A DNA stretch of 64,000 nucleotides, taken from positions 332,506,001 to 332,570,000 of the forward strand of contig OZ024740.1 of assembly GCA_964016885.1 (NCBI GenBank). The letters are read 5' to 3'. The notes beneath the pieces were generated by a model. The model was not told the origin of the DNA and did no database searches. It worked only from the letters and a program-made list of their open reading frames with translations. Made by a program: the position numbers and the translations under genes. This DNA is from Eledone cirrhosa (lineage: Eukaryota). Shown here one piece after another: positions 1,166 through 57,717 of this stretch (within the stretch, counting starts at the first letter, position 1; each line of letters opens with the position of its first letter).

Positions 1166-1977
1166 CTGTAAATATTGGAAAGACATGATTATGTTATTTG
1201 TCTAATATGCACTGGTTATAGAATACATAACTTGTATATCCTATATTTCTTAAACCACTTCCAAACAATACATACGTCACAAGACATGGAATTTTCATGG
1301 ATATGAACATCGTTTGACCTGGGTAATGCTCAATTAACATAACACCCACAAACTTGGATACCGTTTAGTTATTAATAACCTTTTTTTTCAATCGGACCAT
1401 TATGAACAGCAACCGATACTAGGATGAAGATATGGCTGTGACACTTGTTCTCAGTGTAAGGCTTATTTCTGAATCGATTAAATACTTCTAGGTTTATGAC
1501 AAAACCTATTCGTCGCTGCTATATGTGTCGGTGTATTGTATTCACTACATGCAAATCTGTCTGTACACATTTATGTATAATATAATTTGGTTACTCATAT
1601 ATACATGCACACACAGAATATCTTACGTATATGTATGTTTGCATGTATGTATGCATGTATGTATATATGTATGCGCGTGCAAACTCCTTAATGCTTCGTA
1701 CTTTAGCCAGGTTTATTTAACAAATCTATTTTCACGATCAAATCCTCTAAAGAGTTGATAATTAGCGGGAAGAAACTCTTTGTCATACTATCTTTATACG
1801 GTCATTCGAAATAAGTGACAATTGTGGTACGATTCCGCGATATAATTATAATTATATATATCTGAATGATGGTGATTATACTTTAATCTCTCTCTCTCTC
1901 TCCCTCTCTCTCTCTTTCACTGTCTCTCTCTCTCTCTCATGAGTATATACATATATATGTATGTGTATATATATATA

Positions 1978-2057
<80 letters not shown>

Positions 2058-2097
2058 GTGTGTGTATATATATATATGTATGTATATATATATATAC

Positions 2098-2147
<50 letters not shown>

Positions 2148-2155
2148 ATATATAT

Positions 2156-2334
2156 GAAAAAGTATGACCCCGACGGCAGAGCTCAAGCCGTTTCGACAGT
2201 CCAGAAATAGCCGTCGAAACGGCTTGAGCTCTGCCGTCGGGGTCATACTTTTTCCTATTACCCACTCTACTACCCTTAGTATTGATTACTCGGGTGCGTT
2301 ATGGTCCATCTGGTTCGTTAACACATCTCGTTCG

Positions 2335-2337
<3 letters not shown>
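2156..2337 (+). mobile_element. Family A short element (probable PLE 3' end) with 5' fold-back
   Basis: Palindrome 2156-2252 followed by a tail shared with 5663-5847, 6545-6645, 42262-42458 and 57935-58074. TA-flanked. Confidence 0.8.
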
Positions 2338-2377
<40 letters not shown>

Positions 2378-2382
<5 letters not shown>

Positions 2383-2462
2383 ATAATAATATATTTGAAG
2401 ACTAGAATCCAAAAAGGGCTCGATAAGGATAAATATATATCAAATATATAAGAACCGTAGAG

Positions 2463-2468
<6 letters not shown>
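2378..2468 (-). mobile_element. Extreme 3' terminus of PLE family D
   Basis: Matches 37510-37600, which is contiguous with the family D element. Also at 5955-6035, 34325-34420 and 42150-42205. Confidence 0.8.
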
Positions 2469-2527
<59 letters not shown>

Positions 2528-4392
2528 ACACACACACCCATACAAAAACATATATATATACATGAAAATACATACGTACATACATGCATATATGTTACAT
2601 AAATAAAAATAATTGAAAGTGTATATGAAAATAGCATTATCATTAAATATAAAGCGATATTATCATTTTATGGTGTTATCTAATTTTACTATTCCTGTTC
2701 ATGATCGTTTGAGTTACAACTCTTATTGGACCATTAATTTTTCTTTAAAATATTCCATCTAATTTTCGATATTTGTAAATCATGTCATGCCTGTTTGAAC
2801 GTATTTTCAAGACGTTGAATTTCACAGTAAACTTAGAATTGACTTCTATGAACGTGATAATAAACGAGCGGGAACATTAAAATAAAATTTCCATATTTAT
2901 CCATCATAAAATAACATTGTGATAAATGATGATACGCATGAGAATGATGGTAATATTTGTTTTAACTGCAAAGTTAGCGAAATTTTAAAATGGTATTTTA
3001 TGACTGTATCTCATTTGTATTTTATGTGAATTCTGTTTACTAGTAAAAATTATAGTGACTAATATATCAACCGGCATGTGGTCGCTAAGATATTTCCTGT
3101 TATTGCTATGATTTATCGAGAAAACTGGCACTTTCTTGAATAAAAACCAAACAAACCTTCTCACTCAAATTGCGTAACTAGAATAACAGTTTTAGGAGCG
3201 ACGAGTTTATTGATGCAAATGATTTGGTTATTTGCATTGCTGTCTTTAAGAAACCAATAAATCAATTAATATTTCACTTACTCAGGTGGAATAGGAAGTC
3301 AGATCAATAAACTAGTGACCGGCAAGCGTAACAAGAAGTTGGGAAAACAATCCAAACCGTAAAGTAAACTGCATAATGTGAACAAGTCAAATACAAACTA
3401 TGTGAGTGAACACTTCATATATTTGAGTAGGGAATTGTAGCAACGCAAGAAAAATATCAGATTCTTCAACTGTGTTTCTGTAACAAAATATCTTCATATT
3501 TAAAACAACGTCAAATATATTATTGTCATTATGAGCAGTGATTAGTACAATCATTGGTAAAATATGTTGACTATCTTCTTTTATTGGCAGATATATGTAA
3601 AACACGACAAATGATTGCACGTTTCTGTCTAGAATATTTTCCCCATATGAATACAAATATATTTACGTATAATCAAAACGGATATGTAATCTACAAATAG
3701 AATATTTAGTTTTAGTCAAGGTTTTGCCCTCTTTATTGTTTTACTACAATTACAATGTGTATGGAATCCATTGCATTTCTGTGCTCTGAATATGGGATTT
3801 AAACTTCACGTTATTTGATGTTATTGTATAGAACACGTGCGATAGAGTATCGGAGAAACGTTAGCCCGAAGGGATTTCTTTGAAGTAGCATTTTGATACT
3901 ACATTAGCAAATCTGATACAAGAAATAGCTGCATCAGCCCTCGTCTAGGGTTAGATATTGACAATGTTATTTATGTTCTGAACGAAGAAGACAAGACGAA
4001 ACAAGCGACGGATCGGTAGTAAAAGCATCAGAAGTAGCTTAAGAGATCAGATCAACAAATATTACGTAGTTAATGGCACCCAAGTCGAACATAACTGCTA
4101 AAGACATGCCGACTATAGGCAGGAAAGTTAGATTATATTGTCAGTATACGTATCAAATAGCTACTTTAAAAAGGAATGAATAGGCAACGTAGGATACACA
4201 GAAAATTATGCACAATGTATATCATTTTCGATATACTTAAATATATTTCAGTTCAAAAATACACATCAATCCATCTGTACATACATAGATACATACATAG
4301 ACACATACGTACTTGGATACATAGATACATACATACATACATACATACATACATACATACATACATACATACATACATACATACATACATGT

Positions 4393-4995
4393 GGTGGCTG
4401 CCAACTCGTTTTCGAGTACGGCCACTACTTTATATCCATGTAGGAGAACTCCTACTGATGCGCTAAACAAGTGTGACTTTCTAGTCCAGCCAGCGACCTG
4501 AAAACCCCGGCACAAACACTACACCCGTTACAATCACTGACACATAGTGCTAGGCCCATGGCGCCATGTGACGACAAGTGCAGAGAGATCTCCAGATATA
4601 AAGCAATGCCTGTGCCATGAAGCTTTTACGGTGAGCAAAGGCACTGCACAAAGCCAGTCCCACTCTCTTAACCAAGATGATATTTACCAAAAAGAAGAAC
4701 AAGTCAACATCATTGGATACCATCAGGGTTGCAGGTGATATATCAGAGTTTTCCTTCTCCTAGAATTTTGCCTTGACAAAGGCTAAGGGGTCATCTCTCC
4801 CAGTGATTTTGGATGACAATTGACTCTTAAGAGCTCCTTTGCCCTTTGACAGGTTTTGTTTTTAGTCCTGCAGGATGTCCAAGTCACCCTCCTCACCAAC
4901 AAACCTTGGTGGGGTTGCCAGTTTAGTCGCCAACGACCCGACCATGAGACAGGTTGTACTGGGATACATGTTACCAGTAGCACCAACTGGTGACC
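4393..4995 (-). mobile_element. Family B: ~600-bp non-autonomous RTE-derived retroposon
   Basis: Full-length match to 30086-30690. Contains the RTE 5'UTR-like block TCTAGGAGAAGGAAAAC. Has no ORF and ends GGCAGCCACC next to a microsatellite. Confidence 0.75.
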
Positions 4996-5634
4996 TGACA
5001 TACATACATACATACATACATACATACATACATACATACATACATACATACATACATACATACATGTTTGTGAAATTATAAAACCAGAAAAACATACATA
5101 CATACAGGCATCATTCCATCCAGTAATACGTAAGTTCATACGGGTATTCATCCACACAGGCATATATTACGTACATACGCACACGGGTACGTATATCTCC
5201 GGTAATTTTTGAAAATCATAAAAATGCAAACCTGTTATAGTTATTGTAAATAAATCCTCTTAAAAAGACTACAGATACATTTTCAATTACTTTTCTCTAT
5301 ATTCTTAACAGTATGGGATATATACACATATTTAGTGGCAAGTGTTTACGAGAAATACATAGATGAAGGAAAGCAAATCGCTATATGTAATGTATAGAGC
5401 CAAAATATATTATATGAATATGATCTCAACTTAAATGCAAGAACACACATTCTATTTTCGTAGTTATTTTCAGACAAAACCGAAATAGCCAAACGTAATT
5501 TCATGTATGAGATCTCGTCATATAAAGGTGAGGTAGTTATGTGACGATACATTTGGTATGTTTGCTACACACGTAAGCAGCTGATGTGTCTATAAGCTGC
5601 ATACATACATACATATATACAGGTCCGATTCCAT

Positions 5635-5666: not shown

Positions 5667-5842
5667 CGAAGTAAATGTGGTAAGGAACCAGGTGGACCAT
5701 AACGCACCAAAGTACTCAATACTTAGGGTAGTAGAGTGGGTAATAGGAACGAGTAGGACCCCGACGGCTGAGCTCAAGCCGTTTCGACGGCTAATTTCTC
5801 CGTCGAAACGGCTTGAGCTCAGCCGTCGGGGTCCTACTCGTT

Positions 5843-5847
<5 letters not shown>
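5663..5847 (-). mobile_element. Family A element with fold-back
   Basis: Inverted arms around GACGGCTAATTTCTCCGTC, with the shared family A tail. Confidence 0.8.
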
Positions 5848-5908
<61 letters not shown>

Positions 5909-6039
5909 AAAGTAAGGATATATATATATACACAGACACGGTTACATACGCACACGGTTCTTATATATTTGATATATATTTATCCTTATCGAGCCCTCTT
6001 TGGATTTTAGTCTTCAAATTTATTATTATTACTATATAT

Positions 6040-6232
6040 AGGGCGGTGAATTGGCAGTATCAGTAGAGGGTTGGATGCCATGCTTTCTAGCATAGTTACG
6101 CCCCTTTACGTTCTGAGTTCAAATCCCGCCGAGGTTAACTTTGCCTTTCATCCTTACGGGGGTCGATAAAATAAAGTACCAGTAATATACTGGTTAATTG
6201 CTGGCCTTGTGCCTAAAGTAGAAACAATTACT
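6040..6232 (+). mobile_element. tRNA-derived SINE (family C, octopus-type)
   Basis: A-box-like TGGCAGTATC, B-box GAGTTCAAATCC, central GCCTTTCATCCTTACGGGGGTCGATAAAATAAAGTACCAG, 3' end GTAGAAACAATTA. Nine copies or fragments in the window. Confidence 0.9.
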
Positions 6233-6275
6233 ATATATATATATATATATGCTTATATATATATATATATATATA

Positions 6276-6470
6276 TAGTGGTAGAACACTGGAAGGTAAT
6301 ATCCGTAGTGGAAGACCACACAATCCATGGGACGAGTTAGGTAGAAGTGGTTACACAACAATTAGTTCACCACACCGAGAACAATTGTTTCACCTTAGCG
6401 GATCCTCAGCTCGTCCCTTGGACTGACTGCTCTACCACAACGGATATTACCTTCCAACGTTCCACCACTA
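6276..6470 (-). mobile_element. ~195-bp element with ~60-bp imperfect terminal inverted repeats enclosing a hammerhead
   Basis: TAGTGGTAGAAC...GGGACGAG pairs with CTCGTCCC...GTTCCACCACTA. Embedded in (TA)n. Confidence 0.75.
6376..6413 (-). ncRNA. 38-nt minimal hammerhead ribozyme
   Basis: CGAG CUGAGGA U-CC-GCUAA-GG-U GAAA CAAUUG UU CUCG. Helix I CGAG/CUCG, palindromic helix III, GUU triplet. Confidence 0.85.
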
Positions 6471-6889
6471 TATATATATATATATATAATTATATATATA
6501 TATAATTATATATATATATATAATTATATATATATATATATAAAGTGTCAGGGTCCTGACTCTTTTCCTATTGCCCACTCTACTACCCTAAGTATCGAGT
6601 ACTCTGGTGCGTTATGGTCCATATAGTTCCTTATCACCTTCGTTATATATATATTCATGAAGAGTACAATTTGGCGGGATTTAGTCTCCCATTGCAACTC
6701 CTCTATTGGCTGGCCTGAATATATATCAGCTCTGACTTACCTCGTTTTTATTTAAAATTTTATTTGATATGAGTCGTGAAATTGATTAATTGTAGCATAC
6801 ATTCACACACACACACATACACTCAGATACAGACACACACGCACATATATATATATAAATATATATGTATATATATATTTATATATATA

Positions 6890-7126
6890 TCTTTGTTTAT
6901 TTTTATTTTTATTTTTATTTGTACTCCTTCCACCGTTTTTGCTCCCCCCCTTTTTTTCTAAATGTCTTTCCACCACTCCCCCACACACCCTCGGATCTCT
7001 CTTCCCATCCACTTTTCTCCTGAGAAGGGCTTATGTCCGAAACGCCCCCCCCCCCCACTCTCAAGACCGTGAAAGTAATAAACCTTTGTTTGTACTGCCT
7101 CTCTCTGTTTGTTCCCGTTCCAGTTT

Positions 7127-12807: not shown

Positions 12808-13654
<847 letters not shown>

Positions 13655-23783: not shown

Positions 23784-23815
23784 ACGACGTTTCGGGCATA
23801 AGCCCTTCCTCAGGT
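23784..23815 (-). ncRNA. Minimal hammerhead-like motif (family H)
   Basis: AC CUGAGGA A GGGC-UUAU-GCCC GAAACGUC GU. Helix I is only ~2 bp. Confidence 0.6.
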
Positions 23816-52456: not shown

Positions 52457-53636
52457 TGTTATACTTTGGGAGGGTCATGTTGCCAATAAGAAACACACGC
52501 ACCAGTTGCTTTCACTTCAATTTATTATAATAAATTTATAATAAATTTATAAATTTATGAATTTCTGGTTGGTTGGTTGGTTCCACAACCAGATAGTTGT
52601 TTATATATTGTCATAGGTCTTTCGTCACACACTCTGTGACCTCTTCAGTGACTGGGGATTCCTTTCTTTGTTTCTGTGCTTGACCTTTGTTCTGTCCTAC
52701 GCCATTTTGTTTCTGTGCGTGTGTTGTGTGCTCAGTTTGCGCATGCGCCACATCCGGGTCTCTGTGTGTGTTTATGTTCATTTATTTATTTGTTTATTTA
52801 CATGTTACTGGTTGGTTGTTTGTTCTATGTGTGTGTGTGTTTTCATTTTGTCCTTAATTGTAAGTTGTGATGTTGCTGTTCCATTCATATTTTCTATTTA
52901 ATGTTGGTTGTAATTCTTTTATGTTTATTGCCTCTGTAATTTGTCTGAACATTGCGTCTTTTCTGTGTGTAGATTCTATTTTTATTTTTATGTTCTCTAA
53001 TTTACCCTTGTGTTCTATTTTAGCATGTTGGTAGAGTACAGATGATTCTTTACTATCTTGAAGGTCTCGCCAGTGTTCATTTATCCGTTCCCCTACACTA
53101 CGAGCTGTCTCACCTATGTTCACTATATTTTTGTCTCTACATTGTCCTTCAGTACATCTTATGCTATACACTACATTTCTAGTTTTACAGTTAATATGGG
53201 GGCTTATTTTACAGGTTATACATTTCTTATCTATACATGGGGGTCTTTGAAAAGGGTATGTCTTGCTAATAAGTGTTTTTACGGAGGTACCTGGTCTTTC
53301 TACTATCTTAATATTGAGTTTATGTTTATTTAGGGCCCTTCTAAATTTGTAAGCTAATTCACCTCTAGGGGTTGTATCGATGAACATTACACTCTGGTAT
53401 TTATTGCTATCATACCATGAGTTTATTCTATTAGCCTTGTTCCTAGTTTTTTCTATTCTATTCCAAAATTTGCTCCTATACAAGGGGCAGGTCCCATTTA
53501 TGTCATTATTTACCATTTTTTCCCATTTGGTTCTGGCTCCTCCATACACTCTGATTTTATCTCTCTGATTGTAGCCAGAGAACTGCATACGATGGATGAA
53601 GTGTTGTATGTGTCTCTGTAGTTCTTCGGGGTTGCA
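52455..53636 (-). mobile_element. Inverted duplicate of the 3' ~1.2 kb of PLE family F; HHR at 52610-52652
   Basis: Reverse complement of ~56694-57870, including the GIY-YIG coding region. Confidence 0.95.
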
Positions 53637-57674: not shown

Positions 57675-57717
57675 GTCACTGAAGAGGTCACAGAGTGTGT
57701 GACGAAAGAACTATGAC
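57675..57717 (+). ncRNA. Minimal hammerhead variant (family F)
   Basis: GUCA CUGAAGA G GUCACA-GAGUG-UGUGAC GAAA GAAC UA UGAC. Predicted cut between 57713 and 57714. Confidence 0.85.

Follow-up and report, generated by a model that had tools for sequence, protein, structure and literature searches.

A fold-back with a hammerhead-like motif in the Eledone cirrhosa genome is a dead compound stub of a Penelope-like element

The fold-back at positions 6277-6469 of a 64,000-nt stretch of the Eledone cirrhosa genome (GenBank assembly GCA_964016885.1, contig OZ024740.1, positions 332,506,001 to 332,570,000, forward strand; this whole stretch is called the window in the following) is a dead compound stub of an endonuclease-containing (EN+) Penelope-like element (PLE), and as such it belongs to a known kind of sequence. 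Very probably, it consists of two 5'-truncated PLE 3' ends of 137 and 60 nt, which lie head to head in a (TA)n microsatellite and which were likely generated by target-primed reverse transcription off both nicked strands and joined via a 4-nt microhomology. An earlier interpretation that was made from the letters alone, here termed the sequence-only reading, had described the locus as a rod with a complete minimal hammerhead ribozyme, and had proposed either a retrozyme- or viroid-like RNA with a conformational switch or a miniature inverted-repeat transposable element (MITE) that captured a ribozyme. Its more general idea of non-autonomous retroelement material with a hammerhead-type motif holds. 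On the left, 137 nt represent the 3' terminus of a very abundant retroelement family.

Copy 1 occupies 6277-6414 on the minus strand and comprises the last 137-138 nt of the family (reference positions 463-600), including at 6277-6341 the "tail" that lies between an inner (short) and an outer (long) 3' terminus. Copy 2 is inverted and occupies 6410-6469 on the plus strand, and it contains the last 60 nt alone (reference positions 541-600), i.e. tail only. Both copies share the 4 nt of microhomology at the junction (6410-6413; CTCG on the plus strand, CGAG on the minus strand). In blastn comparisons with a natural long copy of the family (L008), copy 1 is 96% identical across reference positions 463-600 and its 3' end points left, and copy 2 is 90% identical across 541-600 and its 3' end points right. 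The left flank is the (TA)n microsatellite that served as insertion target (6232-6276; Tandem Repeats Finder, TRF, reports 6232-6277 with period 2 and 23 copies), and the right flank is a (TA)n microsatellite with ATTA interruptions (6470-6542; TRF: 6469-6542). A DNA search of the window's own 3.0-Gb genome with the locus gave 1,909 first-look candidates, and among the 40 that were scored, the whole 191 nt were matched at the locus alone, whereas the others matched positions 1-137 with 94-96% identity. Past position 137, these copies run into long internal sequence or into an inverted partner. Contigs of four sequencing runs, which are pieces from thousands of copies with none spanning the locus, indicate that most family copies continue into internal sequence past 6414, and that the locus deviates from the family majority at 6320, 6323, 6361 and 6373. 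One-armed copies elsewhere are what the sequence-only reading had itself named as evidence against a mini-element, and within the scored set no other copy had both arms in this form.

The long copies of the family carry an open reading frame (ORF) with reverse transcriptase (RT) and nuclease-type blocks, and an RT fragment gave 59,653 first-look candidates in the genome. A library search found 14,277 representatives at E <= 0.001, and in an alignment of the genome's ORF with 20 library homologues the blocks DK, FD..FYPSI, YRDDG, C-x-C..C..C, GIY, YIG and K.R..H are invariant. Pfam detects RVT_1 in 4 of these 21 aligned members and GIY-YIG in 1 of the 21, and the Atlas neighbours bear RVT_1, GIY-YIG and HTH_animal domains. 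The AlphaFold model of the ORF has a mean pLDDT (predicted local distance difference test) of 86.4, and its best structural matches in the PDB are telomerase RTs (E 2.9e-8), with DRT, retron and group-II-like RTs ranking next. The single ORF encodes a telomerase-like RT and then what its sequence blocks suggest to be a GIY-YIG nuclease, which is the constellation of EN+ PLEs.

The architecture of the family also is that of PLEs. At locus L045, one pseudo-long terminal repeat (pLTR; 2500-2879, reference positions 237-600) lies upstream of the ORF and a second one (4845-5456, reference positions 1-600) downstream of it, so that the ORF is enclosed by direct pLTRs as expected for PLEs, and two same-strand hammerhead-like motifs are 2,577 nt apart. 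Genome-wide, there are 56 junctions of the long end to the element body versus 0 for the control. The family has two alternative 3' termini, a short end (...GTGTAACCACTT) and, 65-68 nt further, a long end (...GTTCTACCACT), both of which terminate in ACCACT and are then followed by (TA)n. Counted as exact patterns, the short end followed by A/T occurs at 3,240 places (control 25), the long end followed by A/T at 3,165 places (control 0), and the read-through from the short-end site into the tail at 2,953 places (control 0). The two termini are thus about equally used, and the tail is one-sided, as is typical of PLEs.

Mapping of the 30 best loci onto the natural long copy demonstrates that head-to-head pairs are the commonest arrangement. 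Besides the window locus, 15 of the 29 loci are head-to-head pairs of a long-end arm with a short-end arm, nine are longer copies (including the inverted pairs L015 and L021), three are solo stubs, one (L014) has two long ends as at the window locus, and one (L024) is a direct tandem; the combination of 5' truncation with an inverted copy that characterizes PLEs is therefore frequent. Among the first 100 motif places listed, neighbours within 5 kb have the orientation (-,+) in 14 cases and (+,-) in one case, and same-strand neighbours do not occur. (TA)n adjoins nearly all copies viewed, and at the window locus it does so on both sides, which corresponds to the AT-rich sites used by PLEs. Of about 50 inner (5') arm ends in L002-L030, 35 form a cluster at reference positions 437-466, immediately 5' of the motif, and this is seen in both arms of head-to-head pairs; the cluster could correspond to the site where a short pLTR transcript has its 5' end, or to a favoured point of turnaround. 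As both the motif and the paired-end layout belong to the PLE family, the fold-back pattern is ordinary for PLEs. The direct tandem (L024 1313-1638; C2:185032201-185032522) comprises two direct 141-nt stubs that are 185 nt apart, with the same (CA)n(TA)n sequence behind either stub. A local duplication or a retrozyme-like dimer could account for it.

The hammerhead-like motif at 6376-6413 (minus strand, 38 nt) is a fixed part of the family's pLTR, in which the inner 3' end follows about 35 nt downstream of it. Read on the minus strand from 6413 down to 6376, it is CGAG-CUGAGGA-UCCGCUAAGGU-GAAA-C-AAUU-G-UU/CUCG, where the slash marks the predicted cut between 6380 and 6379. The CUGAGGA and GAAA boxes and the predicted GUU/C cleavage site (U-H) occur in the order of a type I, PLE-type hammerhead, a nucleotide is present after A9, helix I has 4 bp (CGAG/CUCG), and helix III has 2 bp closed by a palindromic AAUU loop; the 8-nt palindrome ACAAUUGU would be suited to a dimeric helix III. 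Both this helix I and the palindromic helix III/loop 3 region are as expected for PLE hammerheads, but helix II (UCC-GCUAA-GGU) has only 2 G-C pairs instead of at least 4 bp, and compensatory helix II variants are absent from the first 100 motif copies listed. In long copies, helix I consists of 4-5 bp, an internal loop and 3-4 bp, with a 5' strand that varies between subfamilies; its outer part is present in longer family copies and was lost by truncation at 6376-6413. The pattern CTGANGA-N11-GAAACAATTG has 6,296 exact copies in the genome versus 1 for the control, and the boxes are kept in these copies, with subfamily differences confined to N7 and loop 2. A relaxed descriptor, which was composed after the fact so as to accept the motif, is matched by 3 of 20,000 shuffled versions of the terminal region of 600 nt. 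Judged by its sequence, the motif is the family's own variant of a PLE-type hammerhead, which is incomplete at 6376-6413. At best, it would be a weak ribozyme that is aided by dimerization or by protein, and this in complete tandem transcripts but not in the copy at 6376-6413.

Rfam reports no match of any kind at the gathering score in the whole window, and no hammerhead at E <= 10 in 6200-6550 and in a long copy, and what it returns at E <= 10 are generic hairpin or AT-rich chance matches only. As Rfam also misses the clear, canonical PLE-type hammerheads at 13195-13392, its silence at 6376-6413 is not very informative.

The two arms of the stub differ in more than decay. Copy 1 has the "AT" tail type and a motif with N7 = G, whereas the tail of copy 2 is nearer to the "TC" type (on average 55.0 of 60 positions identical) than to the "AT" type (52.2 of 60), and the right arm has both diagnostic states of the "TC" type. 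In the family, "TC" tails go with N7 = A motifs in 8 of 9 copies and "AT" tails with N7 = G in 20 of 21. To go by these diagnostic states, the arms are copies of two subfamilies and not decayed twins. The junction at which they meet, GGGACGAG directly followed by CTGAGGATCC, is found at 14 genomic places versus 0 for the control, i.e. at 13 places other than the window locus, and in 8 of the 9 other loci shown it likewise connects an inverted 60-nt tail with a segment that begins at the motif and extends to the short end. In every copy, CTCG(T) sits immediately 5' of the CUGAGGA box.

How could such a structure arise? According to Frangieh et al. 2024 (PMC11167929), the PLE protein of Anolis cuts the two strands of its target and extends each of them, it begins reverse transcription at two internal AC-rich sites that are separated by the tail, and it prefers AT-rich DNA (PMC11167929). 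The two 3' ends of the Eledone family would correspond to two such start sites of reverse transcription, as measured in vitro for the Anolis PLE. At the window locus, the cDNA primed at the outer site would have halted after 60 nt with the 3' end ...GGGACGAG (...GACGAG), and this end could then have paired with the CTCG in the second cDNA, along which it was extended. Such an extension would create the rod and, by accident, also an alternative 8-bp pairing of the helix I strand, with the inverted tail contributing the GGGA that lengthens the competing pairing to 8 bp. The stub itself appears to be non-functional and decaying, with about 4 private changes per 60-nt arm.

Several observations weigh against this interpretation of the locus or of its family. 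At the level of the protein, Pfam has no match for the genome's own ORF, neither for fragments nor for the full ORF, a search of PDB sequences with a profile built from the 21 homologues gives no hit, and the TM-scores (template modelling scores) of the fold matches are low (0.34-0.39). The tail of 65-68 nt is longer than the 30-40 bp of published PLEs. The motif lacks G10.1-C11.1 and has U.U at 10.1/11.1 in all subfamilies seen, so that the claim of a complete minimal hammerhead is borne out with respect to the 38-nt motif and its core boxes, and not with respect to helix II and the lost outer helix I. Even in a long copy, the hammerhead is not the minimum free energy (MFE) structure (-7.6 kcal/mol constrained versus -12.7 kcal/mol unconstrained), and the predicted cleavage site coincides with 0 of the about 50 inner arm ends in the 30 best loci. 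The locus is, moreover, atypical in its own family, with both arms ending at the long terminus (2 of 30 loci), and its arms derive from two subfamilies, so that integration in one event would have required two template RNAs. Finally, a target-site duplication is not readable within (TA)n.

The subfamily difference is also an argument for a history in two events, according to which a 60-nt tail-only stub of one subfamily pre-existed in the (TA)n repeat, and a copy of the other subfamily was later inserted alongside and joined to it by microhomology. This is a possible scenario, albeit a doubtful one. PLEs from several families accumulate in the same TA repeats, and the PLE endonuclease is said to target its own tail or pLTR (Frangieh 2024, PMC11167929, citing D. 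virilis work), both of which would favour successive insertions. On the other hand, no TA repeat remains between the copies, and each of the two arms carries 4 private changes, which is what arms of the same age would show. The occurrence of the same junction at 13 other places, with an inverted tail in 8 of the 9 shown, fits better to a rule of integration than to chance neighbours. A single event is the more likely origin of the stub.

The recurrent junction of GGGACGAG with CTGAGGATCC might be the fixed footprint of two Penelope RTs that work from the two start sites on opposite strands of one cut, and the stubs would then record an integration step that so far has been seen in vitro only. 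The tail-primed cDNA would halt 6-8 nt short of the inner start site, and the halted cDNA would prime second-strand synthesis through CGAG/CTCG. Combined with the further assumption that the hammerhead, despite its lack of G10.1-C11.1, may retain cleavage activity as a dimer assisted by protein, this is a speculative extension of the single-event model that we regard as rather improbable. If the footprint were real, genomic stubs would record the integration step base by base.

In a direct comparison, 49 of 59 positions of the arms 6278-6336 and 6410-6468 are complementary, in agreement with the diverged arms of about 60 bp that had been noticed before, and a repeat search lengthens this inverted pair (I1) into the bordering TA repeats to 105 nt with 84% identity. 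The rod is calculated to have -91.9 kcal/mol on the plus strand (z -11.9) and -105.9 kcal/mol on the minus strand (z -12.5), and in neither case was this equalled by any of 200 shuffles. The loop between the arms has 73 nt, and the motif is not at the apex of the rod, as the sequence-only reading had it, but at the right-hand edge of this loop, where it overlaps the right arm by 4 nt. Mismatches of the arms can be read as G.U pairs in 4 cases on the minus strand and in none on the plus strand, whereas a ratio of 4 to 1 had been taken as a hint to selection on RNA structure. The four on the minus strand are real, but this polarity of 4 of 4 transitions is not significant (p = 0.125, two-sided), and a test on the earlier count of 4 of 5 gives p = 0.375. 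Of the 10 mismatches, 6 are transversions that break the pairing on both strands, and therefore selection for pairing is not indicated; 2 of the 10 differences are subfamily differences, and the remaining 8, of which each arm has 4, are private. On these grounds, the idea of selection for RNA pairing was dismissed. All 8 private substitutions (6312, 6316, 6320, 6323, 6427, 6439, 6457 and 6458) replace a G or a T of the plus strand (G>A twice, G>C twice, T>A three times, T>C once), with a nominal chance of 0.004 that is post hoc and based on n = 8, and the G.U polarity results from this strand bias.

A long hairpin that is stable on both strands might have been co-opted as a transcribed source of double-stranded RNA, i.e. 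either as a precursor of small RNAs or as a substrate of ADAR, and weak sub-threshold miRNA-precursor scores (MIR6217 with 26.7 bits versus a gathering score of 110) could be quoted in support. We nevertheless consider this very unlikely, since nothing sets this stub apart from thousands of others, since the recorded sequencing runs that contain the stretch include no RNA run, and since, among the 8 private changes, a single one reads as A>G on the minus strand and none does so on the plus strand. For the same reason, hyper-editing by ADAR was rejected as the cause of the G.U bias.

A retrozyme- or viroid-like replicon, i.e. a stable and possibly circular RNA rod of about 190 nt in which a switch frees the hammerhead for processing, is highly improbable. 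It would be supported by the very stable rod, by the presence of a hammerhead-type motif whose helix I strand can pair alternatively, and by the fact that metazoan retrozymes are small, highly self-paired and linked to PLEs (PMC7229834; bioRxiv 10.64898/2026.07.22.740005). The alternative pairing GGGACGAG/CUCGUCCC (8 bp) does exist and is used in the MFE structure, and the isolated 38-mer does not have the hammerhead shape in its MFE structure either. Imposing the hammerhead pairs costs +16.6 kcal/mol (-88.0 versus -104.6), so that motif and rod compete to this extent, but nearly the whole rod is retained. The apparent switch exists because of where the two copies happened to join: it is the inverted tail and not the ribozyme that provides the GGGA of GGGACGAG, and this makes the alternative pairing a by-product of the join point. 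Cofolding as a dimer yields a trivial extended duplex and decides nothing. Release of a unit RNA would need two same-strand cuts, but the window contains a single motif of this family and no tandem unit, and as there is no tandem copy, a retrozyme-type circle is not expected. Tandem arrays, which the sequence-only reading had suggested to look for, are not present at the locus, with one family motif in 64 kb and TRF finding nothing but the TA arrays in 5800-7000; elsewhere, there is the one direct tandem (L024) in 30 loci, and the first 100 motif places listed include no same-strand pair within 5 kb. Moreover, the 193-nt structure is unique among the 40 copies scored, the arms of the rod are two retroelement 3' ends of different subfamilies with 6 of 10 mismatches disrupting the pairing on both strands, and helix II is sub-standard. 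A viroid-like nature is contradicted by the thousands of DNA-encoded copies and by the restriction of the ribozyme motif to one strand.

A MITE, i.e. a derivative of a DNA transposon with terminal inverted repeats and a captured ribozyme, hardly merits consideration: inverted repeats of about 60 nt bordered by TA do resemble the TA target sites of Stowaway-type elements, but the arms are the 3' end of a retroelement that encodes RT and endonuclease, other copies share one arm only and then run into the RT/nuclease ORF, inner junctions vary between copies with one arm usually being 65 nt shorter, there is no association with a transposase, and the TA flanks are long microsatellites instead of 2-bp duplications.

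The surroundings of the stub contain further repeats. At 6094-6225 there is a very high-copy repeat resembling a short interspersed nuclear element (SINE; ...GTTCAAATCCCGCCGAGG...GGTCGATAAAATAAAGTACCAG...), the 3' end of which is the (TA)n that received the PLE, and the same repeat precedes PLE insertions in L003 and L015. In contigs of sequencing runs, this SINE-like repeat is hugely abundant in three organisms, whereas the PLE part is abundant in one only. On the other side, a high-copy repeat at 6545-6640 (...CCCACTCTACTACCCTAAGTATCGAGTACTCTGGTGCGTTATGGTCC...) adjoins the right TA array, and it also borders TA arrays beside PLE copies in L014, L022, L024, L042 and L051. ARAGORN finds no tRNA in 5800-6800. 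In two of the other loci, PLE copies have neighbours of different nature: beside a PLE stub, L034 (C28) contains at 1617-4044 ORFs with motifs (...DAPGSTGKTF...) that resemble those of PIF1/Helitron-type helicases, and upstream of the full-length PLE in L045, at 428-1516 on the minus strand, there is a 362-aa frame that, judging from its motifs, may encode a mariner-type transposase.

Hammerhead motifs of other PLE families are present in the window as well, and there are 10 matches to CTGANGA..GAAA versus 2.1 expected. The canonical ones among them have the bulge, G10.1-C11.1 and a helix II of 4-6 bp. The region 13188-13399 is a near-perfect fold-back of a different PLE family with canonical minimal hammerhead motifs on both arms (13195-13222, minus strand, and 13365-13392, plus strand), each with a bulged U, a 6-bp helix II and G10.1-C11.1, and each followed by TA repeats; in Rfam, this fold-back gives generic miRNA-like hairpins only (MIR7996 with 106 bits, below gathering). 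Two identical PLE-type motifs at 52620-52648 (minus strand) and 57679-57707 (plus strand) are separated by 5 kb and have diverging orientations, with helix II being GUCACA/UGUGAC and helix I GUCA/UGAC. A single PLE-type motif at 23790-23813 (minus strand) has the helix II GGGC/GCCC.

Taken alone, the locus matters little, being a decaying by-product of a known class of retroelements. For the annotation of the Eledone genome, it advises caution in two respects: rod-like hairpins with a hammerhead motif beside TA repeats are PLE stubs and not new RNA replicons, and PLE-type hammerhead motifs escape the Rfam hammerhead models altogether. The integration of PLEs is still poorly understood, and features of this family could inform it, namely the two sharp 3' termini, the recurrent microhomology junction, and the inner ends that cluster 5' of the motif. 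Of modest interest are also the long tail and the fact that a hammerhead variant without G10.1-C11.1 is present in a family of >6,000 copies.

Among the systems that can be compared, twin priming of LINE-1 reportedly combines inversion with 5' truncation. The likeness lies in two cDNAs that start from the strands of a staggered break and are joined by microhomology, which results in an inverted segment. LINE-1 belongs to another class of retroelements than the Eledone family, in which the two primers would use two defined internal start sites and, at the window locus, two template RNAs. Retrozymes have been proposed to descend from PLE pLTRs, as stated in a recent preprint (bioRxiv 10.64898/2026.07.22.740005). 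With the metazoan non-LTR (long terminal repeat) retrozymes (PMC7229834; Li, Clavereau and Pollet 2026), the window locus shares the small size, the lack of coding capacity, the self-pairing, a type I hammerhead-like motif and the kinship to PLE pLTRs. In contrast to it, these retrozymes are tandem same-strand repeats of 150-450 bp, each with a hammerhead, from which unit RNAs are set free by two cuts, whereas the window locus is a single inverted pair that has one motif and lacks a tandem partner.

The motif can best be compared to the hammerheads of PLEs, for which Cervera and de la Pena 2014 (PMC4209133) describe opposite-strand pairs that are 100-700 bp apart, a helix II of 6-8 bp and a highly conserved G10.1-C11.1. 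Relative to that description, the Eledone motif has the CUGANGA/GAAA boxes, the U-H site, a helix I that is short (4-5 bp) and whose loop 1 is ill-defined, the nucleotide after A9 and the palindromic 15.2-16.2/loop 3 region (ACAAUUGU), and it also occurs in thousands of dispersed copies, many of them in opposite-strand pairs at distances of 100-700 bp. It differs from the hammerheads covered there by its helix II with 2 G-C pairs and by the U.U that replaces G10.1-C11.1.

The closest relatives are the EN+ PLEs as a whole. According to Craig et al. 2021 (PMC8557442), PLEs show 5' truncation, have pLTRs that contain hammerheads, carry a tail on one side, are inserted into (TA)n, and can be adjoined by an inverted copy that is itself 5'-truncated. 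On the side of the differences, the Cys motif that precedes GIY-YIG in the Eledone family reads C-x-C-x5-6-C-x5-C, and the window locus deviates from the usual PLE pairs in that its arms both end at the outer terminus and come from two subfamilies. As regards the shared features, the Eledone family has direct pLTRs, heavy 5' truncation and head-to-head inverted copies, it has two AC-rich 3' termini with a tail between them and inserts into AT-rich or (TA)n targets, and its hammerhead-type motif lies just upstream of the putative start sites of reverse transcription, as in EN+ PLEs.

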